The notes under the pieces were generated by a model. The model saw only the letters and a program-made list of their open reading frames with translations. It was not told where the DNA came from and made no database searches. Source: Amoebophrya sp. A120 (lineage: Eukaryota; Protista; Dinoflagellata). From it: a DNA stretch of 64,000 bases. This document shows, one piece after another, positions 14,301 to 42,626 of the stretch. Position numbers and translations under genes: made by a program. The stretch lies in the NCBI GenBank assembly GCA_905178155.1, contig CAJINV010000014.1, positions 1,505,984 through 1,569,983 of the forward strand, in the 5' to 3' direction. Each line of letters starts with the position of its first letter. Positions within the stretch are counted from its first letter, which is position 1.

Positions 14301-17300
14301 TTTTTTCATCTCGGTAGATGAAGTGGAAAGCAAGCGCAACTACAGCAACAGGTGCAGACTTGTATTTTGACGGAGCCGAGAGTAATGTCGAGGTAGATGT
14401 AGTACCAGCCTGTTTATACTGTTTTGCATAAGTCGTGCCGTTTTTGTACCAAAGGACAGCATGAACACCCTCAGGCGACATCGAGAAGGCACTGTTCGTG
14501 TTCCAAGACATCAAGCGAATCGGCAAGCACCACAACACCATCCTGTACACCACCCTGATGAAGGGCTTTGGCATGGCCCGGAACTTGGACGGGGCGTTGA
14601 ACTTGTTTCGGGAAATGCGCGCCGAGGGGGTGCCCGTCAACACGATCACGTTCAACTCGATGATTGACGTGGCGGTGCGGGCGCACGACTGCGAACGGGC
14701 AGAGGAACTGTAATAGAAATTGAAATTCTTGATTTGGTCTGTGCCAGCTTTCAATATGATGTTGATGATAGATAAACATGACGATGACGGCGCTCAACAG
14801 AACAGCATCTATGCATCCTACAAGTCAAATAGTTCAACACAGTACGGTGCCCGTAGTTCTTCTTCTCGTTGGTAACTCGCATGTTGGACTAGTTGGTGTG
14901 GCGAAGCCGAACGAACGGAGCGCAGCTGAGATTGAATCAGTGAGTTTGAGTTTGAGTTTTAATTGAGCCTCCACTCACTTACACTCCGACTTCAAACGTT
15001 AGTGCTTTACTATCAGGTACCGCGAACTGGAAGAGACGAGCGGCATCGAGGCCGACCTGATTACCTACAGCACGCTGATCAAGGGGTTCTGCCAGGTGGG
15101 CAACTTGCAGAAGGCGCTTTTTTACATGGAGACCCTGAAGTACAAAAACCTGCAACCTGATGAGTTGGTGTTCAATTCCCTCTATCAAATGCAAAAGTGT
15201 CTGGGTCTGGAAGATTCTGAACCTGTGACGCTGTCTCTGGATTCTAAAAAAGTTTGATTGCATGACCGGCAACAGAACTCCAGTTTGTGCTAGCCGGAGA
15301 GGGCATTTCTCATTCGGTAGAGGCATCACAAAGGCCCCCTCTAAAAATCTGTCATGCTAGAGCATGCATCACAGACATCATGAGTCTTCCAAAATATGTA
15401 CGACAAACCTGGCAAGCTTCCAGACCCAGACATTTTTACATTTGATACCCTCCTGGACGGGTGCGTGAAGTCCAACGATCTGCAAACCGGGCTACACCTC
15501 TTCGAGGAACTGGCCAAGGAACTGCAGAAAACCTCGCATGTCACGTACCAGATTTTGCTCCGCTTGTATCGGAGGAGTGGGTACAGCGATTCGGAGACAG
15601 AGATGGCGATTCAGCAATTGTACTACAGTTGCAATGTGATGCTGCCGAACACCGCAGGAGGCGGAGCGGGCAATATTAACCATCATGGGAACAACCACCT
15701 TCACAACAATTCGTCTTCTAACGGGGCGAATGGTGGTAACAGCGGAGGGTCTTACAACAACTCGATGATGCACATGCAGGGTAGCAGCTACTCCATGGGA
15801 ACAAACAATCAGCAGCAGCTGCACCAGACTTCTCGCAACGGAAACAACAACGGTTCATCTGCCACCTACGGGCCGCACAGCAACAACCACATTGGAAGTA
15901 GTAGTGGAGGACATTATCACAGCAATAACTACAGCAGCAGTTTTTATCAAAACAACCAGGGCTCCAGTGTTTCCAACTTTCAGATTCAAGGGCCGCGGAA
16001 CAACGAGAATTGTATTCGGAATCACTTTCAGCAGGGGTGCGCAGCGACCACGAGCAGTATGATGCGGAGACAGGAGCAGCAGTCGCGGAATAAGTACATT
16101 ATTCCGTTGTATCATTTTTTGATTTCAAATTCCGTATCTGATTAGGTGATTTCAATTGTAACACGCACTTCATGCACAAGCTGCTTGTACTGGTAGATGA
16201 ATCGAAGATTTTTATGAGCACCTGAAGAATCAATTTAGTCCCTCCATCAACTTACTCGTCCAGCCGCCGTCGCGGCGAGAACTTTGGGCGGGACAATCGG
16301 GGTGCTGCTCCTCTGGGCGCCGGTGCTGGGTTTCTTGGGCAACAGGGAGGCGGGGGGCTGGGTCGCAGTTCTGGCTTTGTCCCCCCTCCTGCTGCTGGAC
16401 CGAGCGGCAGCATGGGTAATGCAACAAACGGCGGGCAATTCGGCGGCGCCTCGAAACATATTGATGGAAGTAACTGTGAACAGGGAGCAGCTGCTGCGAC
16501 TATACCTACCGGAGGTTCGTCGTATGGGAACACTGGTGTTGGAGCATCGAACAATATAAATTCGTACAACAATGGCACTAATAATACCGCGCCAGATCAT
16601 GGAGGTGCTGGCCCGCAACAACAGCACAGCCTGGGCTCCTGCAACAATCTTCCACAGCAGCACACTGCAAACCAACATGGAGGAGCTGCGCTCTCGCAGC
16701 AGCAGGATTATTTTCAGGGGTCCTTCTACAACGCCGGCGTGAATAGCACTTTAGACCAACACGCCGCTTACCAGAACCCAAATAACTACAGCAGCGGCCT
16801 CTTATCGACCGGCGGTACCACACCGGTGCACGCGCACCATCAAATTGCGGGCGGTGCCCAACAAAATGCCAACTTCAATCCATTACAGCAAGAGCACGCA
16901 TTTCAGCACGCTACAACTTCTATGAATAACAACCACGACATGGGTAGAGGAACAACATCAAATGGGTTCAGTTACAATCTGACTGCTGGTGCTATCAGTG
17001 GCCAACAAGGACATCAGCATCCCCAGCACCAGCAGAATCCGCTGCAGTTTGACAGCCAGCAGACGCATCAAAGTGGAGGGCATAGCCATAGCTTTCAAGC
17101 GCAGCTGCAGCAATTGGGCGGCTGCACTCCAGCGAGTGGCGTTATGAACAATCAGCACGGTGGTGCACTAGTTCCTGGAGTAGGACAGCACCAACAGCAG
17201 CAGCTTCACGACCAACAGTTCCAATACCACGATTTCCATCAAAACAGCACTGGAACATCATTTTTCAACAACCCTGCAGCAGCCGGAAATAACCTGTACG

Positions 17301-20441: not shown

Positions 20442-23400
20442 ATGGTGAGCAACGCAACCGGGGGCAATATGAGCAGTCCGTTCGGAGGAGGTTCGGGAGC
20501 AGGGGCACTTTTGCCGAGCCACCACGACTTGCACAGCCCGGTCGTTCACCACCTCCCTCGGCAGCACCAGAATAAGATCGATGAGGAGCACCACGAGGCG
20601 AATGAGCAGTGTGTGCTCCTTGGGAAATTCGGCAGTCTTGGTTGGTGGCTGCAGGTGCTTTTGCTGGTTGTGTGTTTTGTATCCACAGTAAATTTTCCGT
20701 ACACGTACAAATGCGGTCTTTGCATGACAAAAATGGGCCCTACCCAGATAGCAACAAATGCTCTCGCCGCAGCAGTCCCAGGAGCCTTTATTTTGTTGTT
20801 GTCTCTCGGTAGTGATCACTTTGTCCAAACTTATTCTACCTAGAGTTTGTCGAGTAAGTCAGTGGCTACCGTTTTAAGTTTTAGAGAACGACAGGGACGC
20901 CCAGCCCTTAGCTTCCCAACATGACAAAAATGGGCCTCGATCCTAGTTTAGCATGACAAGTGTTGCGTTTCCAAAGATAGTGAAATTTGTGATGCGTTTT
21001 GTACATGTACAGGAAATTTGTATTGCATATTTTGTCTCCCTGATCTACAAGAGGTTCACCGACCCGGTGAGGAGAAGCTGGACCATCTGGTTTCTGGATA
21101 CCAGTAAGCAGGTAATAGGTACTAGTACTAGGAGCACTTATCATAGTACCGCTTTGGAACAAATCGAAGATGAGCCTTTTTGCATCTTCACAAATCGTGA
21201 CGCACGATCAGGAGCAGCTACAACAGCGTCAACCACTGAGATGAATTCAAATTTCAGTCTTCTTGCATTATTTAGTTGTTGACGTCGACGAACAACAACA
21301 AGCACAAGGCTCCTCCTTGAGCAAAAATGAAAACAACATGCTTACAAATCGCTACAGGGCGTCGCCGCCTGCGTTGTCCACGGACTCAACATTGCCTTGT
21401 CGAAGCTGTTTGCTTTCCTTTCCACCACACCGAACTCCGATGCCTGCAATTGGTACTGGCTGAACTTGATGCTGGACTGCACGCTGGGCGTCCTAGTCAC
21501 GTTTCTCTGCCTCCGCATTCTCTGCCGCGTCTACACCTCGGTCAGACTCGCGCTCTATGCAATGCAAAAGTATCGTACTAGTATGTATTGCTATTGCATT
21601 ACAAATTAGCCCAGCATTACAAATTGAATTTGTAATGCTGATTTCCCTTGAGAAAGAGATTTGTAATGCATAAATGCAATTAGAATTACTACGAGTACGA
21701 TACTTTTGCACAGGATACGCTCTACTGCCCGACGAAAGTGGCGAACTTCACCTACCGCCCGGAATTATGAAATGCAAAAGCATCGCACTAGTATAAATCG
21801 CATGACAAATTTCCTCAGCATGAAAAATGGAACTTGTAATGCGGATTTAGGTTAAGCTTAAGAGGGTAATGCATGACTGCGATTACTACGGGCACGATAC
21901 TTTTGCACAGGATAGGAACTCGCGAGAATTGGCGACTACGGAGACCCGATCGACTACAAGATTTACAAACGGCAACTGTTAGACTACCAGTTGATCATTA
22001 TCTTCAGCAAGATCGTGGTCTTGATCTTCGTGCAGGTCTTCTCGGATGTGTTGCTGTCGATCTCCGGCTTCATTTTGGGAATCTTCACGCCCTATCCAAG
22101 GGCGAAGCTGGTGTTTGTCATGGTGATTTATCCAGGAAAAAACACCCATCCCAATCCATTTTTTGCATGACAAACACAGCAAATTATGCATGTTTTGCAT
22201 GACAAATTGGATGGGGATGGGTGCTTTTTCGTGGATATGATTTGCCCCATCGTGATGAGCTGCTTGGCGTTGTGGGTGACCGACAACTTTTTGCAGTTTT
22301 ACAATGATTCGTTTGGCGACGTCGTCCGGGAGGAGCAGGAACTGGCCGAGAACGAATTGAAGGTAGACGAAATGGGAGGTGTGCAGCTTGACACGACGAT
22401 GCATGGGAGCAGTAGAAGTACACCAGAGGGACGAGGAGGACCCCCACACGGTCGTGGCCTTGCACGCGGCGCCGGTGGAGTTGTGCAGCACCATGCTATG
22501 GATGATTTTGTCGGCATCGGGGCTGCCAGTGCCAGCAGTAGCGGCCGCCCGTCGCGACCATTGACGCCACAGAAACAAAAAGTTTTGGATATCCACCAAG
22601 CGGATCACCTTCACGGCTTTATTTCACCTGCTGGAGACCAATTTGTTTATCAGGACAACGATGTCAGCATAGAAGATGCCGATGACGATCTATCTTCACC
22701 CGATTACAGAACCACAGCAAGAAGCAACAGAAACGGCACAACCGGGAAGAAGACGAGTGCATCTTCTAGCACGACCTCTTCGCGCCTCTACAACCAAATA
22801 GCAAGGCGGAAGAGCGACAGGGATTTGACGCTGAACGTAAAGCCAAGGCAAAACGCTGCTAATTCCTTCGCAGCAAACGTGATAGGTGGGGCCAGAACCA
22901 TGCTAGGAGGCGGCGGAGGTCGGAACAATGATAATAGGGCCACATCGTCAACATCGGCTGCAGCGACCTCTAGTTCGCTCGCCTTGGGAGTTGCGGGACG
23001 AGATGTGGCGGTGGCCAACATGGTTGCAGCTACACCGGGCGGAGGAGCTTCTTCGTCCTCATCAACTTCAATTTCGAGCAAAAAAGCTGGTACTAGTACG
23101 AAAACAGGAAGACAAGCAGCGAGCGCCACGTCATCATCAAGTGGTTTGAAAGCTTCTTCCTCGGGCTCCGTTCTTATGGACCATGTGGTAGTCGACGGTC
23201 ATATCGAAGATGAAGAAGAAGATCAACCTCAGCTCGCAGTGGAGACTCAGCTCTACAACTCCAAGACGACATCGTCCTCTGGTGAGAGCCGTATAATAGG
23301 ACGCGGAGTCGTGTCGACGTCTGCTGCGGTAAAAACCTCCGCAGCGGTCGCTGGTCCTGCTAGCGGACTCCTTGTTCAACATGGAGGGTACCAGCACTTC

Positions 23401-27100: not shown

Positions 27101-30100
27101 ACATGTCGGGACTGCAGGAGATGCGGTTTCAGGTCCGGCAGATGCGGTTGGCGAAACGGCTGGCAGCCGGGGACCCCGACGTGTTCCCCCGCGAATTTAC
27201 GTTCAAACTTACCATCGTTCGGGTGGAGAACATGACGGACAACGAACACTCGGTTTTCATCGCCGGTACCACCGCCCACAACTTGGCTCGCGCGGACCCC
27301 ACCGCCGCGCACTTCTATGAGGACAAGTACAACTACAGCGACCCGATCCCGCTGTTGAAGTTCCAAAAAGTGAAGCTCGCGAAGGAAAACGAGTTCTATT
27401 CGAAGCGCGTGGAGGGGAGCTACATCTTCCTGAAAGACATCGAACTGCGGCTAGACGCCTGGAGTCCCAGCTTGTACAAGATGAACGACTTCCTCGGGAC
27501 GGCGACGCGGAAGCTGTACGACCTGGCAAACGGAGAACTCTCCACCTACATGACCGTGACGCAGCCGATCTTGAACGACATGGAGGACCCGGATTCGATG
27601 CCCGCGGCGAACAAGGAGATTGACCGACCGGCGGAGGTGATGCGGGTGGGGCTTTGTTGCATCATGCAGGAGATGTACTACTTCGAAATCAGCTTCGCGG
27701 GGTTGCACTTTCTACCCAGAATCGTGAAACAGTTCGCGGACCCGAGCGAGCTGAGGCTCCGGATTTCCGCCCCCTGCGACATGTACGGCAATGTCGAGTA
27801 CTTCACGTCGGACTTTGGCAACGCGGATTACACGTTCGAGGACGGGGGTACCTTTCTGTACGAGGGAACCCGAACCTCGTTTCAATCGGAGTACGTGGAA
27901 ATTAGCATCATTTCCGGGATGCGGACCAAGGGCGCGGGCATCATCCCCCTCGCCGGGACGGACCTGAACTCTTCTGTTCGCGCCGTGGTGAAGGCGGTAG
28001 ATTTTCGCGAGAAGTCCTACTTTCTCGGGGTCTTGACCGGTTTTGTCGCCGTGAAAACGCGGTCGAAGCTCCTGCCCCCGGGGATCGAGGAGGACCTGAC
28101 CGACCCGACCATCCCGCGGCCCATGCAACCGCTGCAGCGCAGTTTGATCTTGACCCTGGACCCGAAGATGCAGTACCTGCTCGTGGAGGTGTACTCCGCG
28201 GACGGGTTGCCGGTCGCGGATCCGGACTCGCGCATCTCCAACCCCATCGTGCGGTGCAGCTACGTATCAAATGCAAATATGTCTGGGCGGTCCTCTGGAA
28301 ACCTGTGATGCTGATTTGCTGCTGGTTGCAACGCTTGCCATGGCAGCCACGCATGACAATTTTTTGAAACGCCTTCCGATGTCTAGCACGCATTACAAAT
28401 TACGCTTTCGCAACATAACAAAGGAAGCGGCTCTTCTGCTGCTCACGCAACACAGATTTTCTAGGAATGCAAGACACGCATTACAAGTTCCACGTTTCCA
28501 GACCCAGACGTATTTGCAGTTGATACTCCGACGGGATCGTGCTGGAAACCTCGGTTGCGAAAGACACAACCCGACCGGTGTACAACCAGTACCTGCACTT
28601 TCCGGTCCGCTACGCAAATCCCGCGGTGCGCACGGATCCGAAGCTCCAAGACAAGATCCTCCCGGTGGACATCATCAAGCGGGGAAATTTAGAAATCGAA
28701 GTCTGGCACCACAACGGCGTGACCACGTCGGAGCTCCTCGGGCGGGTCGAGATCGACCCGCATTTGATCATGCAGTACGGCGTTGTGAAGCCCCGCGCGG
28801 TCGCGGACCCGTCGGCGCAGGCCCGGCAGTCTTCCGGCGGGGTGGGCATGGACGGCGAGGAGCCGGAGGAAAGTATGGAGGAGTCTGTGGATTCGGACTA
28901 TTCCCTGAAAATTAACATCCCCATCCAATTTGTCATGCAAAACATGTAGTAAAAGCTCCGTTTGTGATGCAAAAAGTGGATGGGGATGGTTAATTTTCAG
29001 GGAATACGATCGCCGACAGCGACGCCCAGGCGGATTCCGCGGATGCCAAGCGGCAGAAGGACTTGCGGACGCAGCAGGCGGTATGGCGTTCTCAACTGTT
29101 ACATTCTCGACTGTTACGATGAATTTGCGATGCAAGAATGGCAAAAGTGATAGGGGGACTCTTGCGCGTCTTGCATGACAGATTTGGCACCGATTGTCAG
29201 CCTGTTTGGCCCTCTGAGAATTTGTCATGCGAAGCAGCTTGATGGTGTCGATTCTGAAGGCAATTTTGCATGACAAATCGCGTAACAGTTGAGAGTGTAA
29301 CGCTTGAGAACGCCATAGGCGGGGATCTTGACGTTTGGGATTCACCCCGACCTGATCAAACAGCAGAAGGTGCGGGTGTACTAGGAAAGCCTCAGAATGG
29401 AAATTCTCAAAGTGGAAATGATTTGTGATGCATGAAATGCGACACCAAAAAGGCTGTATTGCAGAGAACGCAATGGAGGCCGACTATTGTGCTTCTACGG
29501 CTTCAGAATTGAGCTGCTGATTAGCACGAGAGAAGGGCACCCCTTTGCCTAACTAGCATGACAGACACGTTTTGAGTGCCCGGGAAATTTGTCATGCGCC
29601 GACTAGAAATGGTGCTTCGACTGGAGTTGTTTTTTTGCATTACAAATCATTTACATTTCCACTTTGAGGATTTCCAACCTGAGGCTTTCATATCTACCAG
29701 GCGCGGAAGGAAACCCTCACTGGCGGGTGGATCTACACGAGCGCGCGGAGTTCCATCATATCCACAGAAAAAAACCCATTTACATCCATTTTTTGCATGA
29801 CAAATAGTGGATTTGGTACGTGTTTTGCATGACAAGAAATTGGATGTGGATGGGCATGGGTTTTTCTCTGTGGATGCATCACCTTCGACGCCTACTTCAT
29901 TCCCGACTTCTATGGAAGCGTCAGGTTTGAAATCGCCAAAGTTGAAATAATTAATTTGTGATGCATAAAATGCATAGCGCGAAATACGTGTGTTGCAGAG
30001 CAGGCAAGGGTGGCCGATTGTAAGCCTGTTTGGGGTTAGAGCTCGAGCTGTTGCAGTAGCATTAGAAAAACAGCCATCTTTGCCTAAACAGCATGACAAA

Positions 30101-32632
30101 CAACTCGATTTAGGCATCGCCAAAATTTGTCATGCGCCACTTGGAAACTGGGTTCCAACTGGCATCCATTTTATGCATCGCAAACTATTTCAACTTTGAC
30201 GATTTCAATCCTGATAGGTCCATAACTTCGCCCCGGATTTTGTCGTTCCGAGCCAGCCCGCGGAACCGTCTTCCGCGCCGGCGGCGGTGGACGCGCGCCT
30301 GAAGATGGTCGACGATTGGAACGAATTTTTCGACACCTTCAACCTGGCCTACACCTACTGGTTTATCGACGCCATTCCGCCACGCAAGCGAAGGTTTATC
30401 TGCACCACCGAGGCCATCAGCAGCGGGAACCTGGTCGGGGCGGCGGGCGGGGAGGCGCAAGCCGCCTTGAACCAAGCCCGGCAGGACGTCATGCTGCTGC
30501 CCAGTCTGATCCGCCACACCGTCCTGCCGGACGGCTTTCGGTACCAGGCGTATGTGCTGCACTGGCTCGCCTGCATTCCGTTCACCGTGTCGCAAAAACA
30601 ACACCAGACCCACTTCCTGGACCGGTGGCTCCCCGTGCAGCAGGTTTTACATGGAAAAAAGGGCTCCGTGCAGGACCACTGCGCTTTATTGTGCTCGATC
30701 TTGACCAGCCTGGGCGCCGACGCCTACGTCTGCAAGGGCACCGTGATATGGAATTAGTACAACAAGCTTGATGTTCATCCGACGTCTGTACACGGCGTAC
30801 AGATTCTTGCGTCACATCAAATTTCATCGACGAGTAGAGAACGCAGCTACTTTTCATGCGAAATAGGATGCAAGGAGAATCTTGTCATGCAGAAACCGCA
30901 CATGTACTTCTTATGTCTACGCGCCATCAAATGTACTGTGCATAAGCTCGGAACCCAGAGTTCGACCGGGGCGTGCCCAAGTACGCCGAGGAGCGGCTAC
31001 GGCTGGCGAGGCAAATTGTGTACCGAGAGCACTGCTGGGTCATGACGCGGGAGAAGTCGGGCACCGTGGTGTTCTGGGAAACCACGCAGGCCATCACCTT
31101 CCAATTGAAGAGGCGGTGGACGGGGAAGGCGATGGAGTCGGAGCACCAGTACCGCAAGCTCGTCGCCAATCAACAGGCGAAGAATGCGAAGTGGAAGAAC
31201 AAGGAGGACGACGAGAGAAAGGCGGACTCCTACGTTTTTTGGGACCTGTTGGCGCGCCGGAGGGACGCGCTCACTCGGCTGAAGGACCTGAAAAAGCTGC
31301 CGATCGTTCCCATGGCCGAGATGGGGAGCCAGAGCAACATGGTCGCCTTGCCCTATTACAGTATCGAAATCGTGTTTAACAAGGACAATGTGTGGGGCAA
31401 CCTGCGCAACCACGACCCGGCGTGGATTCGCTACGACCTCGACGATGACCACCAGTGGAAACCGCTCATGGAGATCGACGGTACGGAAAAGTGGTTGTTG
31501 CAGCGGAACGACTCCAAGTCGCTGGTGATTGGGCCTTCCTTCCGGGTCGTCGATAGCGAGCAGCAAATTTTGAAAATCCAGGCCGACGTGGAAGAGGCCA
31601 TCCGGTTCGCCCGGCTGCGCATCGGGCTGCAGACGAAAGTGTTCCGGAGCGCGATCCTCGGGGAGGTGCTATCCGAATTCCTGGACAACATGGAAAAACA
31701 GTGCCTGCTCGACTATCCACGAGTAAACGATTTCCCGCACAGGTATGTAAAGAAACAGACTTTATGCAAGTGTGGTCTCTGCAGCATCACAAAAAGAAAA
31801 TTGGCCTGCTGACCCTAGTCAGCATGACGAGTGCAGCTACACTGGTGTTGTTCTAAGTTCTGGCAAATAAATTTGTGATGAATTTTGTTCTCGAAACTGC
31901 GAGAAATCGAAATTTGAACTGCATATCAACCCATCGCACTGCACGAACATTGACGGCGCGGCCAAGTGTTTGCGAAAAGGCTCCTACGCCTGGGATGGGT
32001 CTCTGCTGACGACCAATATTGCCGCGGAGAAGTATCGCAAAAAAGCGAAAAAGCAGTGGCAGAAGTGGTGGGACAAGTACCGAGACATGGATATTCGGGT
32101 GGCGGGCGTGCCCATCCCGTATGCAATGTAAATTTCCCGTACATGATGTACAAAATGCATGACAAATTTCGCTAACTTGCAGTGCCCAACTTGTCATGCT
32201 AGACTAGGACTGAAGGCAAGTTTTGTCATGCAGAGACTGCATTTGTACGTGTGCGGGAAATTTACTGTGGATATCCCGGAGTCCACCACCTTCGAGGGTG
32301 TGCCGTTCCACCTGAGCACCATGGAGCTGCGTGAGATTCGGGCGTACATCTCCAGCAGCAAGGACGCGCGGCGCCTGTTCATGGTCGAGGAAGAGACTTC
32401 GGAGTACGTCGTGCAGGTGAACATCTACCCCTTGCAGCACGAAATCGGGTCGGTGTGGATTTTTCTCGGGCGCATGACCCGCATGACGGACGCCGAGGTG
32501 GCCGTCGCGGCGGCGGCCCAAGAGCGAACGATCGACGGCGCAAAGCGCGAGAAAAAGGAACGCGACGAACTAAAGTCAGCGGTCATGCGGGACCTCCTCG
32601 GCGGCCCGGAAAAGAAACAGGTGTTCGGGTAA
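24140..32632 (+). CDS. C2-domain, CEP76/CC2D2A-like protein with transglutaminase-like C-terminal region, ~1445 aa spliced
   Basis: C2 motif VEVYSADGLPVAD..SNPIVRC..LETSVAKDTTRPVYNQ. GSVQDHCALLCSIL..LGADAYVCKGT..HCWVMTR..VVFWE..PYYSIEIVFN..WGN matches CEP76/CC2D2A. Removing 10 introners leaves a continuous 4338-nt frame. Confidence 0.8.
24474..26666. mobile_element. Long (2.2 kb) introner, family E (TIR TATGGCGxTCTCAA..), with internal cargo
   Basis: TIRs plus GAAAG TSD; removal gives AEKAADKAF. Confidence 0.88.
28265..28525. mobile_element. Introner, family B
   Basis: TSD CTACG/CTCCG; restores the C2 domain (RCSYDGIVLETS). Confidence 0.88.
28899..29006. mobile_element. Introner, A-related (TIR TATTCCCTGAAAATTAA)
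   Basis: Near-perfect TIR, degenerate TSD CGGAC/CGATC; frame DSD|ADSDA. Confidence 0.85.
29082..29317. mobile_element. Introner, family E
   Basis: GGCGG TSD; frame QAGILTF. Confidence 0.88.
29382..29692. mobile_element. Introner, family G (TAGGAAAGCCTCAG.. / ..CTGAGGCTTTCATA)
   Basis: TSD TGTAC/TCTAC; frame VRVY|QARK. Confidence 0.85.
29759..29876. mobile_element. Introner, family A
   Basis: CATCA TSD; frame SSITFDAYF. Confidence 0.87.
29911..30224. mobile_element. Introner, family H (TATGG..TCAGG..GAAATCG)
   Basis: ACTTC TSD; frame PDF|APDF. Confidence 0.87.
30747..30944. mobile_element. Degenerate introner
   Basis: Weak TIR (TATG..AGTACA..TTGATG). TSD not recognisable (CGTGA/AGCTC), yet removing the element plus 5 nt restores the frame. 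Confidence 0.65.
31714..31925. mobile_element. Introner, family C
   Basis: TSD TCGAC/TCAAC; frame CLLD|PSHC. Confidence 0.82.
32120..32273. mobile_element. Introner, family C, opposite orientation to the 20680 copy
   Basis: TCCCG TSD; frame VPIP|ESTTFEG. Confidence 0.88.
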
Positions 32633-33980
32633 TAATCATCCTCATTTTTTAGTATTGAAACAACTTGCAGCCGCAGCGGCCGCTCTTGCGCAGCTTGTTC
32701 TGGCACAAGGGGACGACCGCCGTTTCTTGCAGGAGGAGCTCCTCCTATGTTCTTCGCAGGAACACGAACAGAAGCTCTCCTGTGCAGAGCAGATCCAGAT
32801 TGTTCGGTCATTCGGCTCTCCTGTGCAGCAGGTCTGATAAAGTCCTCTGCTCTCATTGATTCATCAGAACTCGGTTCTCGTAAAGCGATGAGATCATCTT
32901 GCACAGTTGATGTAAAAAGTATATCTACAATCTCGGTTTTTTTTTTGTTCTGGAGAAACATCATGGAACTTTCAACGCTATCTTTCAACATCGCCAAAGA
33001 ATTTGAACTACGGTGGTGCATCTTCACCCTGTCGATTCATCACTTTTGTTGTGCGCCAAGGCCAACCTTTGCCTTTGGACGCGATATTAAACAGTAGGCT
33101 GATCATGCTGATTTTCTTTCAGTAGTAATCTTCAGAAGATCAAAACATCGCGAATGCTCGATGCTCAGGTCCAGAACAGTTCTTCCCGTAGTTTATTTTG
33201 CCCCCCCAGTAGACTTGAATATCCAATGTATCGTCGTAGTATCTACCCATATGAATTACCTCAAGTCGTTGCCTTTTCGTAGCATTGTGGTCTTTTCGTT
33301 TTGCTAATTTGGCTATAAAAAACGAAAATCTATCGTGCGGTCGCTCGTCTTCGTAGTTCCCCATGCCTGCCCTTCATCTAGAACTACTAAATTTTCCTCT
33401 TGGCCTCCGCCGCTGGCTCTTGTATTAATTGAGTAAGAACTGTATCTCTTTCTCTTCATATATCGTGTTGTTCGTCTTTTTTCGCCGCTCCATAGATACC
33501 CATCTGCCTCTACCCCGTAGCTACATGGTATAAAGTAGTTTTTTTCTGTCGCGTCCGTCGTTTATTTCATAATCGCACGAAAAATCAAAATGACGAGTCT
33601 TGTTGGCTACCATCAATTTTTTAGCACTAAATACCTTCTCGCGCTTTCTGCAGTTGAGGCGTTTTTTTCCCCCAGCTAACATGATTCACCATGCTTCATT
33701 CGGGATAGAAAATTCAAATTATACAACCTGAAGCTTGATTGTTGTGGATGCCCCGTCCTCCGCAACAGGACCGAGAGTAAAAAAGAATGTTACCTCCACT
33801 GCGGTGCCGGGGCCTGTTGACCGCAAGCAGGAGTTGGCAACAACAATAAGAATAACTGATACCACCCGAACAAAGGAAGTAGAGCAGGTAGACCACGAAA
33901 TGGCGAGCATCATGATCCAAGGCAGCTGCACCGAGTACGAGTAGGAGCAGACAATCACAATTTGTCCTGAACTAATAAAC

Positions 33981-36900
33981 ATGATGATGCCTGGAGGACA
34001 ACTTTCCAGGCCGCTGCTTGTCGACCATGGCGGTGTAGAGGACGATGTTAAAAACAAGATGGCTCCTTCACACTCTCGTCCGCAGTCGGGCCACCTGCAG
34101 GAGCACAGCACTTCTTCCGCCCGGAGGAACCACCAAGCGGAGGATGTTGAGCCAGACGACCTCCACCTAAAGCCATTTGTGAGCAGTTTTTCGTCTGCCA
34201 ACGAGTTCAGCGCCCTCTTCTCACAAGCCTCGCTCACCCTGCCGAAACAGGCGATTTTGGAGAATTTTGTGCACCACAACCCGTGGGACATGCTGCAGGA
34301 ATCCGTGGACTTCTACGACTTCATGGCCCACCACCGACATTTCCCGAAGGTCAAGATTCCGCTGCGAGTGCAGGCCGCGACGGTCGAGCTCGCTTCGGTT
34401 TTTTTAGATCGTGGAGCGAGCAAGTGGAGTTTCGAGGCGTCGAGTAGAAACGCAAAAACTCCAAATGCAGATGTACATGAAGAACAAGTTCTTGCAGCGA
34501 TGCACAGAGCGGGTGCAAGGCGGGATCATGAGTCAGGAGCCCCTGCTGGTAGTTCTCCTTTCCAGAAGATGAGAGGACATCGAGAAGAGCTCGACTTCCT
34601 GCAATTCTTCGCCATCTTAGAGGCCGAGGATGTCGATGGCAGTACAGAGATAGTAGAAGTAGGTCATCATGCTCACCTTCCACCGGGTAAAAGCTCTAAG
34701 ATTACGAGGGCCACCAGCAGGACGAGTCAACATGAGGAAACGCGGCCAGTTCGTACCCCTGGCCGGCTCTCATCGGTTTCCTCTTTCGGTGCTACACTGT
34801 TGAGGCGGGTTGCGAAGCTAACACAATCGTTCACAAAACCCAGCACGAACTGGAGAAGCTTTGCGGCGCAGAGGGCCAAGGAGGTTCTTTTGGAATTGCA
34901 AGAAGCGGGAAGAACAGAAGCCGCGGTACAAGTAGAAGTAAACGAATCTGCGACAGCGCCGGCGTCAACAATAGCCTCGTTATCAATAGCCCAGCGAATC
35001 CTGGAGGAAGATTTCCACTTTTGCTACAACCTCCCTGTCACCGAAGAAAATCTGCGCGCCTTTCTTTGGGCTTTACCCGGCTACGCGGGCATGTTCCAAC
35101 GGATGGAACGGCACGAAGAAGAGCAGTCTCACTCTCGACGTGGTCTACTTCGTGAAGATGGAGGTCCTCCTCGTCGTGGCTTGACATCATCACCAGAAGC
35201 ACAAGCAGCTCCCAGACTGCTTCATTTCGCCGCCGTTTTGTCCACTTTTTTGCGCTCGAGTTTGGAGCATGACAAGACGCAAATCGAGATCGAGTATACG
35301 GGTCCGGAAGATGAAGCGGAGTCCGACATGCAAAACCCGTCGGCGGTGGCTTTTTTACAACAAAACATGGCGCGGCGGGAGGCTTTGGAAACGGAGTACG
35401 AAAAGGTCACTTTGCGGTGTATCTTTGGGACGACGAATAGTTACTCAGAAAATGTTGACGGTGAGGACAGCAAGGAGAAGGAAAAACATGGTGCCGCGCA
35501 AAATAGGGCTCGTCTCGTCGCTGGCGGTAAGACAACTCGTCCTGCGAGGACACTGTTCACGCAAGACAATCTGCACGATGTACGGACGCAATTAATTCTA
35601 AAGCAGGACGAGGAGCTGGCTGGGAAACAGCTGCATACTAGCGATCTTCATGATCCTCTTTTCTGCGAGGAGGTCGTAGGGCCAAAACAAGCTGCGGCCT
35701 CCGGTCCTCGTTCTTACAGGATGGAGACTGAGGATTCATTTTCTGCAAGAAAACTTCTCGCAAACAGGGTGAGAAAGATCCAGCTCTTCACCTGTATCGA
35801 CGAGCGGGAGTGTTCCTTTCGCAGACACGCCGAGCGGGTGGGGCAGGAGTTATTCTCTTCTATTACACATCAACATGATCATGATGAAGAAGAAGAATAC
35901 CAACAAGGGCGCAATCGTGCAGCTAGACTACAAGAACCAAGATCAAGATCTCCAGACGGCGTGGTGGTGGAAACCTTCGGCGTGCCAGGCTTTTTCGATT
36001 TCCCCATCCGATACCGACCTTGTTGGGCAACTGGAGGCGGAGAACACGGAAGCGATGCAACAAGTTCTTGCGGAGGTGTGATCACCCTTGCGCCGGAGGG
36101 TAATTTACCAAAATGCGTTTTGGTCGAGGAAGAAGTTCTTGAGGGAGCAGAAGGAAGAAGTTCTTCACTCATTTCATCTACTTCGGATAGTACAAGTTCA
36201 AACTCCGGTCCTGGTCCTTCGACAAGTTCAACAAACATCTCGACGCTCGCCTCCTTGCCGGCTCCTTTGATGCTTCTACGTGCTGCCGACCAGGTCTTGT
36301 CATCCTTGTTTCCCCGCCTAAGCGCAACTCCTTATCGCGCGGAGCTCTTTGCGAAGTTTGACTTCTACGTCCACGAGGTTGCCTATGGGTGTGTCAGGAT
36401 CGAAATCGACAAAATCGAAAAATTTGTGATGCATAAAATGTAGGGCACTGGAGGCCTGTATTGGGGAGCAGGCAAATGAGACCGGTTGTAAGCCTGCTTA
36501 GGGGTATGCAATGCGATGCCAGAGTAGCACGACGGGAGCGATATTCTTTGCCCAAACAGCATGACAGACTGGATTTGGGTGGTCCCGAAATTTGTCATGC
36601 GCCGCTTGCAAACTGAGGCTCCAACTGGTATCGATTTTATGCATCACAAGTTTTTCGATTTTGTCAATTTCGATTCTGACACTTCCATATTGCCGGGTTT
36701 TGTCCGGTCCGGAGCTTGCTCGTGTCCGCGGTTTTGTTCCCGTTTTTCTTCTTCAACTTGTGCCTGGTGTGCTGCTTCCCGGATTGGCGGAAAAAGGTCG
36801 TGTCGGACTGGTTTTTTCACAAACTATGACAATGCACAACTCCCCCTTCCCCTCATTTGTCATGCAAAATACCAAATCCACCCCTTGCCTCTTGGCACTG

Positions 36901-39900
36901 TTTGCATGGCAAGTTCTGGGAGCCCAAATAGCACTACACTCCAGTGAAAATTTGTCATGCAAAACCGGCACTCTTGCTGATGCTTGTACTGCCGCTCATG
37001 CAATACAAATGAGGGGGAGGGGGAGTTGTGCACTCTCATACAAACTTTTGAAGATTCCGAACGGGGAGTTTCCGCCGGCGGGAGATGTGGATCATCACGT
37101 TGAAGTTGTGGATCATCAAGAGGAAAGTGCTGTATTTCCGAAGATAAGTGGTAAGAACGTGAACGAGGAGAACTCGCCTTCTACAGTGTCATCACCATCA
37201 CGACTGCCTCCATCTATTCTAGCACAACCAGGATCTGCCATGCCGAAAACGCGCCTGAAAAGGCCTCTCCCCTACACGAACGAGGAAGCTGCGGTGCGGT
37301 TGGCGCGAGTTTTCAACAACATTGGTGGTGGGAAGAGGATTTTCGGAGATGAGGATGAAGATCATGAAGCAGATACTGTTCTTGCTGCTCCAACATCTTC
37401 ACAAGCACCATCAGCAAAGCAGAAACAGCAAGACAAAAAATTTCACTTGATTTTCGTCCTCGGGCACGGGTCTCGCACGGTGAACAACCCCTTCGATGCT
37501 GCCCACAATTGCGGTGCCTGCGGTGGCCGCGAGGGCGGGCCGAATGCGCGTTTGTTCTGCTCGTACGCGAACGACAGGGAGGTCCGGGAGATTCTGCGCA
37601 GCAAATTTCAGATTTCCATCCCCGACTCCTGTCTGTTCGTTGGCGGCTACCACGACACGAGCAGTGATTTTGTGGAGCTGTTCTCGGAAGACCTTTATTT
37701 GCTACTTGACGAAAGTTGTAAGACGGATGCGGGAGAACGAGAAGTGGAACAACTACGAGACGCCGGGCTGGTGCCGGATGTTGCTGTACCTTTTGAAGCA
37801 GGAGTAGCTTCTGATCTAGTTCGTATTACGTCAATCCAGAGAACAATCGCCCTCCTGCAAACTCATTGGCTGCTCGAAACGCGGAGAAGGAATGCACTGG
37901 AGCGCGTCGCGCGTTTCGGCCCGGTAGAGAGCGTGATTGCGACAAAAGCCGAAGCCCTACAGCACGTCCAACAGCGCGTGGAGGACCTGGGGGAAGCGCG
38001 GCCGGAGCTCGGGCACGCAACCAATGCGGCGATCGTGATCGGGCGCTATGGATTGCAAAAATGTCTGGGTCTGGAAGATTCTTACACTTGTCACGCACTT
38101 TTTGCATGAGCCACGATGTCTGTGATCCAGACCCTAGCAATACTATACAGATTTTTTGAGGGCTTCTTGATGCCTATTTCGCATGACAAATGCATTCTCA
38201 GCGTAGCACAAATCGCATTCCCTTTGGTACTCATGCAATACAGATTTTTTTGGAATCCAGACGCAGCATCACAAGTTGCATTCTTCCAGACCCAGACATT
38301 TTTGCAGTTGATAGGCGCCGGGAGCTGACGAAAGACAAGTTTTTCGCCAGACGGATTTTATCCAGGAAAAAACACCCATCCACATCCAATTTGTCATGCA
38401 AAACACGTATAAGATCCTGTGTCTGTCATGCAAAAAATGGATGGGGATGGGTTTTTTTCTGTGGATAGATTTTCCTGGTTTCCTACGACCCACAAAACGA
38501 CGATGCTCTCGGAACGAATTTGGAAACGCTACTCACGCCCGCGATTATCGTCTGCAGCGGAATCTCCCTGGAGTACCTGTTCAGCACGACGGACGGGGGC
38601 GCGGGCACAAAGGTGCCCATGAATTTGGTCGGCATGTTCGGGGTACAGCAGGGGGTGAGCGGGGATCTGATGCCCGGGCTGCCGACGCAGATGACGGAGT
38701 GGCACGTGCCAGTGCGGGCGGTTTACGTCGTGGATGGGAAGGTAGAGGCGGTGAAGGCGGTGTTGGCGAGAAAACTGAATTTGAAGAGAATCATCGAGAA
38801 CAACTGGGTGCGGTTTTTCGTGCGGGACTTCGAGACCGGGAAATTCTACCGGCAGCAGGAAAGAGGGAAATGGGTCGAAGTAGAGGTTGGAGGTGCTGGG
38901 GAGGAGAAAGAGCTAAATTTGCAGCCCGTCCACGAAGACGTTGTGGAACTACACGGGCATCAGCAGGAAGATGGTGTTGGCGGCCAGCACAGCGGCAATA
39001 CTTCTAGGCATAAGCATACAGGAGCTTCAATATTAAACAATCCGCCCGTGCTGGCCCCGGACTCCTCGGACTTCATCAATCGAAATAATTCAGAGGTGGA
39101 AAACGAAAAGAACTTCAGCAAGGCGGGAAGCGAAAAAAACCTCTCCTCGACAAAACACCTTTTCAATGTGGACAGCAGCACCGCACTTCTGGATGACCCG
39201 CCGCCCACACTGTCGACGGTGTCCACGGCGGACACTCTGATTGGGAACGGAGGAGGCGGGAACTACACTAGCACCGCACAAGGAGCTCCTCTCGTCGTGG
39301 TGGAACTAGCGACACCGCTGCACAAAAAGCTGGCGGATGTGGAAGAAGTTGAGGTTGTAGCTGCTGATGTAGTACTACTACAAGAAGGTGGACTTCCAAC
39401 GTTCAAGAACCGAATCGCGAGAACCCTGACCTACGTGCCAGCATCGGAGCAGATCCAATATGTCCGCACGTTGGTACATGGCGAACGGACTGCGTTCCTT
39501 GCGTCTCTGTTAGTCGGACTTTGTAGTACAGCGTTTGGATTCATCTACAAGGCGGCCGGTAATAGTTTTCTTGGTTCAGACGTTGAGTCGACGTCTCCCA
39601 TGGAAAAGATCGCAGCAGGGCAGAATGCGGCGGCGCCAGCACGGGAAAATCAAGCGGTTCCGGTTGCAACCAGTGCCAGAAGTAGTGCCAAAATGTTTTT
39701 GACAGACACGGCATCTGGTGCTTCAACGAGCACTAGTAGCGACTCCACTATCTTCTTCTTCAAAGACCTCGTCTACCTCGGTTTCAACCTGCTCGGGATT
39801 TTCACGATCTGCTTTTCCAGACGGTACCTCCACGGCGACTTTTTGTTTTCGCGGTTTCTCCTCCTCTCCGCATTCATGCTGGTCGGGTTCGATTGTTTGG

Positions 39901-41852
39901 CTTATAATCATCTTCCGGTAGATTCATCTAGCACAACTAGCAGCATCGATAGTACAATCATCGGAGGCGGACTTAATATGGAAGACAGCTCGCAACCGAC
40001 TGCGTCAACTACTACTACTCTGGGTTTTTCCCTGCTCTCCTACACGTCTATCTTCCTGATCGGAGCCTACAACGACCGGCGAGTAGTTGCCGAGAGCGCC
40101 ACTTTCGTTTTCTTCGTCTACTGCGTCTCGGAGCTGTGTTTGTTTCTCGCGATGACAAGCGACGGTTTTTACAAAAAAGACAACGGGCCGCTTCCCACGT
40201 TCGGTCGTGAGTCACCTTCAGACGTAGGAACAGTACACGGCGGTGACACGACATTTTTGACGACATCATCATCCTCATTCCAAGCGGTCCTGCTCGTCCT
40301 TGCCGCAACCCTGAAGACCTCCCAGTTCCCCTTCACCGAGCTGTTCCCCCGCGCGATGGAGGGGCCGTCGCCTTGCTCCGCGATTGGGTATGCGGTCTTT
40401 TCCGCCCATTCTGGCCTTGTCCTGCTCATCGAGCTGAATGGTCTCTGGATCAACAGCAAAGTGGCGGTTTTTCTACTGCTCCTCATCGGATCCGCAACGA
40501 TGTGCACGGCAACCGTCTCTGCGCGTCTCCGGGCCGACCGGAAGGGATCACTCGGGTCTGCGATCGCGGCCAGTGTCGGCGGACTGTACGTTGTACTTGC
40601 TGTATTGGCAGCTGGGTTTCATCATCTTCTTGACCACGGAAATGTTGAAATGGCAGCATCAAAAACTACTACCGGACCACGCACAGGAGGTGCACAATAT
40701 CAAATCTTGCACCCCTCCCCAACATCCTCCTCGTTTGTTTTGTTCTTAGCCCTGGCTCACGCTACTTTCCGGTGTATCCAGTTGCTATCAAGTGCAAAAA
40801 TGTCTGGGTCTGGAAGAGTGCGCGACTTGTCACGCTGCTTTTCCATGGCCCATGAGGTCTGGAATGCAGGACCTACCATGACAGATTCTGTGCGATCTCT
40901 CTCATGCCTATCCTGCATGAGAAACTCCCTCCCCACTTGGTCAAAACTGGACGACTTTTGGCAATCATACAACACAAATTTTTGCATGCTTCAGATTTAG
41001 CATGACAAGTTACCACCTTCCAGACCCAGATATTTTTACATTTGATAGTTGCTCCGGGCGCACAACATCATCCTCGAATACCACCAGTGGCGTGCGGCCA
41101 TGGGCCGGGGAAGGCAGTTCGCGAAGTTGCAAAATGAAAATGATGCACGAGCAGATAGAGCAGCAGCAGCTGCAGCACTTGATAATCAAAAGGACGATCA
41201 TGCTGAGATGAATTACTCCACCTCCTCCGCTGCCGACAGCATCATGCGGCCGACATTTCTGCCTCTTTCCACCAGCTTCCGCTTCTACTGGCGTTGCGCG
41301 AAACGGGGTTGCGGTAGTGACGTCACAGAACTGGTGTTGAGCGGGGTAATCGGGAACTTCTGTCGAGTGGTGAAAACTTGCGTGGTCGCTACTGTGGCTA
41401 TTTGCAACAGAAGTCAAACAGAAACAAGTCGAAGTACTAGACAAAACACACTGCAGCGGAGGTTCCTCCTCGCAATGGAGGCGATCCAAGAGCCGTGGCA
41501 GCGAAACCGATTTCAGTGCCAGTATGCTGCCGTCATTATTTTCCTTGTCCTCATCGAAGTTTTGAAACGACAGAGCGCTGCAGCGTTTCTTGATGATACT
41601 ACAACAACATCAACTATTGCATCTGCAGCGCATCACGTATCATCAACATCTTCCGTGTCAACATCATCTTCCTCTCTTTCTGACATAATTTTTAAAAGCG
41701 GTGGTGGCGCTGTGCTACTTGTTTTGACCCATATTTTCATCCCAGTAGTTCTGTTGCGATTTGTGTTTACCCACGTCTTGCACGCGAGGAGATTTCGGCA
41801 TAGCGATAACGTCAGTGCACAAAAATTGACACAGATAAAAAGTGGTCGCTGA
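33981..41852 (+). CDS. DabA (DUF2309/UPF0753, beta-carbonic-anhydrase-like) - DabB (NuoL/MrpA-like proton-conducting membrane subunit) fusion; putative inorganic carbon pump, ~2228 aa spliced
   Basis: DabA motifs: ENFVHHNP, LPGYAGMF, FTCIDERECSFRRH, ETFGVPGFF, GHGS..NNP..AAHNCGACGG, HDT, EARPELGHATNA..IGRRELT, RRIFLVSYDP, GISLEYLFSTTD, GAGTKVPMNLVG..GDLMPGLPTQM. NuoL/MrpA motifs follow: FSRRYLHGD..F.RF, KTSQFPF..FPRAMEGPSP, DRKGSL, HATFRCIQLL. Removing five introners gives a continuous 6687-nt frame. The start may lie in an upstream exon. Confidence 0.9.
36384..36689. mobile_element. Introner, family H
   Basis: ~55-bp TIRs, TTGCC TSD; frame EVA|GFCP. Confidence 0.9.
36825..37040. mobile_element. 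Introner, family I (TATGACAATGCACAACTCCCC..)
   Basis: CAAAC TSD; frame FHKLLKIP. Confidence 0.9.
38047..38313. mobile_element. Introner, family B
   Basis: GGCGC TSD; restores DabA IGR|RELT. Confidence 0.92.
38359..38467. mobile_element. Introner, family A
   Basis: GATTT TSD; restores DabA RRIFLVSYDP. Confidence 0.92.
40786..41047. mobile_element. Introner, family B
   Basis: GTTGC TSD; frame IQLLRAHN. Confidence 0.9.
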
Positions 41853-42626
41853 GCAACCGACGTCAATTGTAGCGACATGTTGACGACTACGATTTCTTCC
41901 ATATTAATTTGTGTCCTTGTAGAGTCAATTACACAGAGCAACATATGCAAATCTCTCTTGGGAACCAAGAGCATACTACACAAGCCGACCGCAGAGAAGT
42001 TTCTTGCACATGGATCCACCAAATGTCTAATGTCATACTGCGCATCACGTGATGACGCGTCGACTGCCGACGTATAATTTGCAGAGGTCTCGAACAACTC
42101 ATGGATGATTTCGTAATTTTTTTGATTTGAGGAAAACGAAAACAAAAGCAAAAGCCCGAAGATTTATTTGATTGGGCGGACGCTTTATTGCAAAGACATG
42201 ACTCCTACACGACATCATTGTCATACATTCGTTTCAGAAGCTGGCATACTAGTGTGTCGGTGTCCCTCCCTGCTTGTAGCAGTACATGGTCAACACCCTG
42301 AAGACCTCGAGGGCGTTCGTGCTGTGTCTGTGCCCACCTATCGTGCAGGAGTTGTGCAGCAAGTCAGTCTTCCGGAGTCACCAGACGCTGAGCTGGGCGG
42401 CACGACAATTCTCTTGGGAGGAAATATCAGGAGCGGAAATGGAAAAAAATGTTGTTGCTCCTCCTTCTTTCAGAGAGAGTCCTCGTGAGCAGAGATTGTT
42501 CAGACACAAGATCCAGACAACAATAGTTAGAGTTTGTCGTTTTCCGAGTGCCAACGAGGGGTTGTCTATACCGAACAGCTACAGTCCTAAAGATAGTTTC
42601 TTTCATCGCGCCATCCTTAGCATAAA

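Follow-up and report, generated by a model that had tools for sequence, protein, structure and literature searches.

A single nuclear gene of the protist Amoebophrya sp. A120 encodes the two proteins DabA and DabB as one polypeptide. The gene lies at 33981..41852 on the plus strand of a stretch of 64,000 nucleotides (contig CAJINV010000014.1, positions 1,505,984 to 1,569,983), which is called the window below and to which all coordinates refer. It consists of six coding exons separated by five introners, carries the residues of the DabA zinc site, belongs to a clade of eukaryotic fusion genes and originates beside a branch of bacterial dabA-dabB genes. By analogy with the bacterial systems, the product would be a proton-gradient-coupled CO2 hydrase in one chain, probably located on an acidic vacuole in A120. 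We give this function a little better than an even chance.

The systems to which DabA and DabB belong, DAB or DAC, are described as bacterial and archaeal (PMC13144422, 10.64898/2026.05.01.722082, 10.1101/476713, PMC8552792, PMC6689103, PMC10880623, PMC13399641). In the literature consulted, energy-coupled one-way hydration of CO2 is described for prokaryotes only, in DAB/MpsAB and the cyanobacterial NDH-1 Cup. A first-pass annotation of the window, made from its letters alone, knew of no characterised eukaryotic example. None was found since: the accessible literature, a scope outside which lie subscription papers and the homologue list of the DAB1 preprint (which may include the His-type proteins discussed below), yielded no description of a eukaryotic DabA or DabA-DabB fusion, and the term "eukary" is absent from the text seen of that preprint (10.64898/2026.05.01.722082). 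The gene belongs to a patchy protist family for which no published description was found.

Gene structure and protein domains

The plus-strand reading frames of the gene break at five introns. These are introner 1 (36379..36689, 311 nt, with a direct repeat of 5 nt and inverted arms of 56 nt), introner 2 (36819..37039, 221 nt, with a repeat of 7 nt and arms of 42 nt), introner 3 (38042..38313, 272 nt), introner 4 (38354..38467, 114 nt) and introner 5 (40780..41046, 267 nt, of one family with introner 3), all on the plus strand. One 7,891-nt contig of sequencing run X1 (depth 97.5) lacks all five. Its listed pieces match the window with zero mismatches, and it spans 33167..42242 on the plus strand, the left end being placed from 133 extra letters. 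The joined exons form a single frame of 6,687 nt, whose translation matches the public protein CAD7967840.1 (P0001 in our numbering; gene GSA120T00022286001) at every residue. The five introners and the one frame of 2,228 amino acids in the first-pass annotation are borne out by both.

The presumption that run X1 is RNA draws on the shape of the contig and on its match to the public gene model. It holds 44 million letters, compared with 106 million for the likely DNA runs; this small size and the contig ends close to the gene are compatible with a transcript. In run X4, exon pieces are covered at a depth of 2.5-10 and no junction is bridged. Two raw RNA runs from 2026 under the same species label (X8 and X9) place partial, low-identity reads on the introners and zero on the exons. 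They probably represent another strain and are uninformative on expression.

Every intron junction carries a direct repeat of 5-7 nt, with TA or AT immediately inside it in five of five cases. The terminal inverted repeats are 32-56 nt long and 82-91% complementary. With all registers of the direct repeat tried, GT..AG ends are impossible for each of the five, and GC..AG ends are possible for intron 3 alone. Relatives of four of the introns occur at other places in the window. Junction repeats, inverted repeats, a repeated family and splicing, which together make up introner anatomy, are all present. Published Amoebophrya introners likewise have non-canonical ends, junction direct repeats, terminal inverted repeats and repeated families (PMC7789003). 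The repeats and arms found here lie at or above the commonest published sizes, which are 3-5 nt for direct repeats and 8-20 nt for arms (PMC7789003). The GC content of the gene (0.53, and 0.56 at third codon positions) is inside the range of nine other long frames of the window. Skipped introners of host type and an orthologue in Amoebophrya strain A25 identify a genuine nuclear gene of the host and not a contaminant, as had been argued at first reading.

The protein scores 326.8 bits for the DabA domain PF10070 (curated cut-off 25) and, in the same chain, 42.5 bits for the NuoL/MrpA-like domain PF00361 (cut-off 21.5), which confirms the single-gene fusion first proposed. It had also been doubted that the membrane half was a nad5. 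That doubt was justified: complex I is absent in Amoebophrya (PMC7789003), and the best score under the NCBIfam criterion for a full-length ND5/NuoL or Mrp A is 44.2 bits against a cut-off of 380. About 1,030 of the 2,228 residues belong to insertions. The helical N-terminal domain of DabA, with the motif ENFVHHNP and low-complexity insertions, occupies approximately 34230..35420 on the plus strand, as do all features named below. The lid motif GVPGFF, which corresponds to GI[A/G]GFFG in DAB1, lies at 35979..35996. A long low-complexity linker (38880..39488) leads from DabA to the membrane part.

The eukaryotic family and its bacterial relatives

A compact-relative search returned 282 proteins. 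Among the 120 listed, at least 71 are fusions in which DabA precedes DabB (A-then-B) or pieces of these, at 563 bits or more; the next match scores 405. The named members come from Amoebophrya A25, whose orthologue has the same architecture, Apocalathium hangoei, Paulinella micropora, P. chromatophora and Pseudopedinella elastica, and the remainder are mostly metagenome or transcriptome proteins. An exhaustive phmmer search of 1.84 billion representatives added few members and no large new group. Fused clusters in the ESM Atlas are only bacterial or without a recorded source, and two scans of viral contigs found no viral relatives. Two unannotated Staphylococcus phage records, OR849901.1 (H1) and OR845004.1 (H2), contain a DabA/MpsB-like stretch of 38% identity, which may be host DNA.

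Eukaryotic-type domains were found on six of 14 fusion-bearing contigs, on which 82 other frames were scanned. They comprise a mitochondrial carrier, Integrator 3, DM10 with CASTOR1, a kinase with EF-hands together with PheRS-beta B1, TBCC, and Cns1/TTC4. RRP45 is a further eukaryotic-type protein beside a fusion gene. No prokaryote-specific marker was found in the 82 frames.

A comparison with bacterial DabA and DabB, proposed as a check at first reading, yields one eukaryotic clade beside a bacterial branch that shares with it a histidine in the active site (the His-type branch). In FastTree, 76 eukaryote-type rows are split from 79 bacterial rows by a fully supported branch. IQ-TREE recovers the split from DabA and again from DabA and DabB combined under a mixture model, the latter being a quick tree. 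There A120 joins A25 and then Apocalathium and other proteins (support 98). The stramenopile Pseudopedinella adjoins Apocalathium (support 96). The gene tree therefore departs from the species tree, and eukaryotes have probably passed the gene among themselves. The Amoebophrya gene may have been inherited, or it may be an old uptake from a dinoflagellate host. Of the horizontal acquisition first suggested, an ultimately bacterial origin stands; a transfer into Amoebophrya does not, since the gene is nested in a clade whose members, about 70 fusions, come from several groups of eukaryotes.

Judged from the alignments and trees, the eukaryotic clade derives from the His-type dabA-dabB branch and from neither DAB1 nor DAB2. 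The original assignment to the DAB/MpsAB type fails in detail, as the bacterial branch is separate and positions that are indispensable or invariant in DAB1 and DAB2 differ. A DAB1-like family assignment was dropped because DAB1 has L825 and H229. No tree singles out a donor phylum.

The bacterial comparison covers the best 80 of 593 prokaryotic genome loci, which belong to Planctomycetota, Verrucomicrobiota, Myxococcota, Bacteroidota, Bdellovibrionota and Nitrosomonas-type bacteria. In 75 of these 80, dabB is the downstream neighbour of dabA, with the same orientation and as a frame of its own, and five contigs end before it. A large hydrophobic frame comes after dabB in 50 of the 72 bacterial loci examined: a second, antiporter-like PF00361 protein in 38, SulP in 10, SbtA in one and a protein without a family in one. 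The loci with SulP, among those examined (L081-L157), are nearly all from Bacteroidota. SulP and SbtA after dabB tie the His-type branch to inorganic carbon. The eukaryotic proteins share with these operons, in the numbering of DAB2, His658, Tyr260 with a histidine six residues on, Arg347 and the A-then-B order, at an identity of 31-40% for most rows. The bacterial genes differ in being unfused, in keeping E144 (NuoL numbering) and H339, and in usually having the antiporter-like subunit or SulP next to them.

The simplest reading of the fusion is a single read-through of a dabA-dabB pair, early in the eukaryotic gene lineage. Independent bacterial A-then-B fusions occur in or near Planctomycetota (P0009, P0403 and locus L052:83-2287), and they indicate that read-through from dabA into dabB recurs. 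Grouping P0009 with the eukaryotes is rejected by the approximately unbiased test (p 0.0003, 24 rows). The single-chain DAC of Acidimicrobium ferrooxidans also has both halves on one polypeptide (PMC13144422, PMC6689103, 10.1101/476713). In P0010, a similar bacterial fusion, B precedes A and the active site is of the Leu type. The 925-residue protein P0350 branches just outside the eukaryotic fusions, as the sister of them all (support 100 for the two together), is without DabB and has a bacterial-looking N-terminal region; it may be a marker of the donor lineage or a gene fragment. On the A120 side of the tree, P0003, P0006 and P0046 have an extra hydrophobic, membrane-like segment ahead of DabA.

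Catalytic site, membrane half and predicted location

In DAB structures, zinc is bound by two cysteines, one histidine and a water, which is held by an aspartate (PMC13144422; 10.64898/2026.05.01.722082). Residues C351, D353, R355, H524 and C539 of DabA2 (9RD0) align to C605, D607, R609, H985 and C1000 of the A120 protein, which by this alignment has the Cys2-His zinc site and the Asp-Arg dyad. The C605-x-D607-x-R609 segment lies at 35793..35807 (the codons of C605 and D607 start at 35793 and 35799). H985 to C1000, with the NNP...CGACGG loop, lies at 37465..37512, with codon starts at 37465 and 37510. Four zinc ligands had been predicted at first reading, and all four residues are in place; the aspartate among them holds the water and not the metal (PMC13144422; 10.64898/2026.05.01.722082). 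In an alignment of 61 proteins D607, R609 and H985 are invariant, C605 is kept in 60 and C1000 in 59.

Structure prediction, also suggested at the outset, agrees with this picture. The core of the A120 protein was modelled with 735 residues, a predicted local distance difference test score (pLDDT) of 69.8 and a predicted template modelling score (pTM) of 0.75, the pLDDT being low only in insertions and one loop region. Its best match by Foldseek is the carbonic anhydrase CsoSCA (E 2.8e-4), and VIA-align likewise ranks CsoSCA (2FGY) first, with a Z of 12.4 and a root-mean-square deviation of 4.0 over 273 aligned residues. CsoSCA is reported as the best structural match for DAB1 too (10.64898/2026.05.01.722082). 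The DabA half is predicted from the model to have the pseudo-dimer fold of a beta-carbonic anhydrase nearest to CsoSCA. A hydrophobic helical hairpin at residues 803-843 corresponds to the DabA finger or elbow, and its insertion into DabB is a prediction. The whole element (residues 799-843, 36375..36818) is interrupted by intron 1 and contains the eukaryote-specific E799. The two papers on DAB structures disagree on what the finger does (PMC13144422 versus 10.64898/2026.05.01.722082).

The DabB-like membrane domain (39489..41780) contains E1745, K1806, S1827, Y1831, H1837, K1882, H1954 and R1958 and ends in two C-terminal helices. Foldseek of a full-length relative, P0041, modelled as one confident chain with about 13 membrane helices (pLDDT 87.7, pTM 0.89), finds only NuoL/ND5/NdhF chains in a library that holds no DAB entry. 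Buried membrane residues are conserved across the 61 proteins: K1806, H1954, R1958 and an acidic residue at 1745 in all 61, K1882 in 59 and H1837 in 58. Such strong constraint on buried charges goes beyond the needs of a mere anchor.

The closest points of comparison are the two characterised systems. DAB2 of Halothiobacillus neapolitanus (DabA2/DabB2, PDB 9RD0/9RD8/9RD9, PMC13144422) shares with the A120 protein PF10070 and PF00361, the C-x-D-x-R motif, the His and Cys of the zinc site and the finger hairpin. Also shared are the ion pair K235/D185 (K1806 and E1745), S256 (S1827), K310 (K1882) and H343 (H1954), as well as the loss of NuoL E144. DAB2 consists of two bacterial chains, whereas the present protein is one eukaryotic chain with A before B. 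DAB1 (DabA/B/C of Thermocrinis albus and H. neapolitanus; 10.64898/2026.05.01.722082) shares the lid motif, the NNP...CGACGG loop, a D...RPE motif and the CsoSCA fold. It differs in L825, in its essential H229, in D708 (Asn here) and in needing DabC, and no DabC-like part was seen in the fusion protein.

N-termini differ between the groups of the family. A presequence was called mitochondrial-like, by a rule of our own, where the first 30 residues are rich in arginine, have at most one acidic residue and lack a signal-like core. By this rule 13 of 19 clade I proteins qualify, none of eight in the A120 group and one of six in a third group, after exclusion of 16, 7 and 2 truncated or short rows, respectively. 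The contrast (Fisher p 0.0009) is overstated, since kin share traits. Two of six proteins in the third group exceed the signal-peptide threshold, and P0072, P0078, P0331 and P0349 of that group show by eye a hydrophobic start followed by a stretch rich in serine and arginine. This is the pattern of targeting to complex plastids. Three fused proteins outside clade II (P0342, P0345 and P0347, the last being the deepest fused branch) have by eye starts rich in arginine and poor in acids. These starts point to a mitochondrial ancestor; in all probability the first fused protein served in mitochondria and was retargeted later.

In the A120 group the motif PL[LI] occurs in an N- or C-terminal tail of nine of 14 proteins, compared with none of 28 in clade I and two of six in the third group. 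The sites are in non-homologous places. Shuffling gives a mean of 0.93, with none of 2000 shuffles reaching nine, for a motif that was picked post hoc, after the sequences had been viewed. PLL is a common form of the dileucine motif, and the textbook motif has an upstream acidic residue. The A120 motif (residues 11-13, 34011..34019), a candidate sorting signal for vacuole or lysosome, is without that residue, and this, like the post hoc choice, counts against the assignment. Dileucine motifs direct membrane proteins to lysosomes, vacuoles and tonoplasts (PMC4649669). From its sequence, the A120 protein is probably on an acidic vacuole or lysosome with its catalytic part in the cytosol. Going by the helix order of NuoL, DabA would face the alkaline side in each of the three compartments, and protons would enter in its direction, as they do in bacteria.

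The N-terminal extension of P0008 (Paulinella micropora g60155.t1) is long, basic and free of acidic residues. Phosphoenolpyruvate carboxylase and beta-carbonic anhydrases are assigned to the mitochondrion in the CO2-delivery model published for this amoeba, and the accessible text of that paper and three supplements names neither g60155 nor DabA nor DUF2309 (PMC11194058). P0008 is a candidate for a missing part of this delivery.

Proposed function and genomic surroundings

In the proposed mechanism, protons would flow through the NuoL-like membrane part, and this flow would drive one-way hydration of CO2 to bicarbonate at the buried zinc site. Coupling is suggested by likeness to DAB1 and DAB2 and would use a rearranged path of E1745/K1806, S1827, H1837, K1882, H1954, R1958 and perhaps E799. 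The bicarbonate could serve carboxylases, and the protein could handle CO2 and pH, in a fast-growing intracellular heterotroph. The clade-specific dileucine motif would place it on the acidic vacuole or lysosome. The bicarbonate "pump" of the first-pass annotation may hold by analogy, on a membrane that is probably not the plasma membrane. A broader and more tentative proposal, which we hold possible at clearly less than even chances, is a eukaryotic vectorial carbonic anhydrase with a proton path unlike those of DAB1 and DAB2, which arose as an ancient fusion in the mitochondrial inner membrane, trapping respiratory CO2 as bicarbonate in the matrix, and later entered complex plastids and acidic vacuoles. 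Plastid forms may then be an unrecognised means of recapturing CO2 in algal carbon-concentrating mechanisms, and vacuolar forms may be those of the group to which dinoflagellates and Amoebophrya belong.

Alternatively, the protein may be a membrane-anchored, uncoupled and reversible beta-carbonic anhydrase whose proton path partly decayed after its partner subunits were lost. We consider this unlikely, although a number of observations speak for it or otherwise weigh against coupling. A leucine called conserved and non-canonical in DAB2 (L658) and DAB1 (L825) (PMC13144422; 10.64898/2026.05.01.722082) is replaced by the canonical active-site histidine (H1168, 38014..38016) in every one of the 76 eukaryotic rows and in 78 of the 79 bacterial ones; the sole Leu among the latter is that of the outgroup P0010. 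That leucine is thought to block rebinding of bicarbonate; histidine stands here as in the freely reversible CsoSCA, where it may shuttle protons (10.64898/2026.05.01.722082). Mutation of W656 uncouples DAB2, and all 76 eukaryotic rows have Leu at this site; A376, also hit in the uncoupling screen, is Pro in A120 (10.64898/2026.05.01.722082). In the membrane half, A120 has Cys at the equivalent of R182, where the family has Arg or Gln, and the equivalent of H260 (H229 in DAB1) is Tyr (Y1831; 53 of 61 proteins). The triad H339/H343/K347 of transmembrane helix 11, mapped through NuoL/ND5 alignments and NuoL motifs, is not kept and reads L1950, H1954 and R1958 in A120. H339 is Leu or Met in eukaryotes and His in 67 of 71 bacterial rows, and K347 is Arg throughout the family. 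E444 of the DAB2 finger is absent, with Arg at the aligned site. In DAB2, H260A, H339A, K347A and E444A/Q impair the system, which needs H339 and is inactive once H260 is lost (PMC13144422), and H229A abolishes the activity of DAB1 (10.64898/2026.05.01.722082). NuoL E144 is kept in 70 of 71 bacterial rows and lost in eukaryotes only, and the second antiporter-like subunit of the bacterial relatives has no counterpart in the eukaryotic gene. A120 is moreover the most diverged family member, with 240 of 285 conserved columns kept against a family median of 97%, which agrees with the rapid protein evolution that the genus is reported to show (PMC7789003). Finally, the entire His-type branch, bacterial and eukaryotic, is known in the literature consulted from sequences alone.

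Other observations speak against an uncoupled enzyme. The mutation L658Q did not free DAB2 catalysis in vitro (PMC13144422), and His658 and Tyr260 are common to bacterial relatives with a full antiporter arm. The replacement of H260 by Tyr with a histidine six residues on, and that of K347 by Arg, are shared by the eukaryotes and their bacterial sister branch; the histidine in question, H1837, is a candidate for a substitute role. Several buried charged residues are invariant, as described above, and a new acidic residue has appeared in the finger: E799, eight residues before the E444 site, is acidic in 75 of 76 eukaryotic rows and in eukaryotes only. DAB2 likewise lost the interface glutamate (I151) (PMC13144422). 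The eukaryotic protein would so have become stand-alone, with the interface glutamate lost as in DAB2 and the proton path partly rebuilt. A role in pH or ion homeostasis, in which sensing or turnover of CO2 and bicarbonate at DabA gates a flux of H+ (or Na+) over an organelle membrane, seems improbable to us. Amoebophrya has neither plastid nor complex I (PMC7789003), which upholds the earlier description of a non-photosynthetic parasite, and it has no Rubisco to feed; MpsAB has been argued to be Na+-coupled (PMC13144422), and three predicted compartments would suit a general-purpose device for pH and carbon. Heterotrophic bacteria, however, run DAB/MpsAB for bicarbonate supply, so that a lack of photosynthesis calls for no other role, and the proposal draws on analogy with Na+-linked MpsAB. 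Very improbable, finally, is the reading of the A120 gene as a relic in decay or as an artefact of contamination or false fusion. Its divergence and the extent of its insertions might suggest this, but the frame of 6,687 nt is open, the five introners are cleanly skipped, all catalytic residues are kept, A25 has an orthologue of the same architecture and the neighbours include PPR and CEP76 genes, all of which largely refutes it.

If coupled, the protein would be a new component of the carbon and pH biology of protists. Installing bacterial pumps of several subunits in the organelles of plants or algae is difficult, and a single chain with its own organelle targeting peptides would be a ready candidate for raising bicarbonate there. 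The natural changes at L658, W656, H260, H339 and E444 directly test both published coupling models. Even an uncoupled protein would be instructive, as it would show how coupling gets lost.

Around the gene, 25 frames were scanned and gave three informative proteins, of the PPR and CEP76 kinds only. The gene for CEP76, a centrosomal protein, lies directly upstream of the fusion gene (30946-32632), and a PPR gene farther upstream (15384-16142). A frame at 431-1345 contains a DUF488 domain (PF04343, 55 bits), a mainly prokaryotic family, and is possibly a second transfer. Further introners of the families of introns 1, 3/5 and 4 lie at 13627-13734, 15182-15447, 22127-22237, 28359-28525, 28916-29006, 29392-29645, 29759-29875 and 29910-30224.

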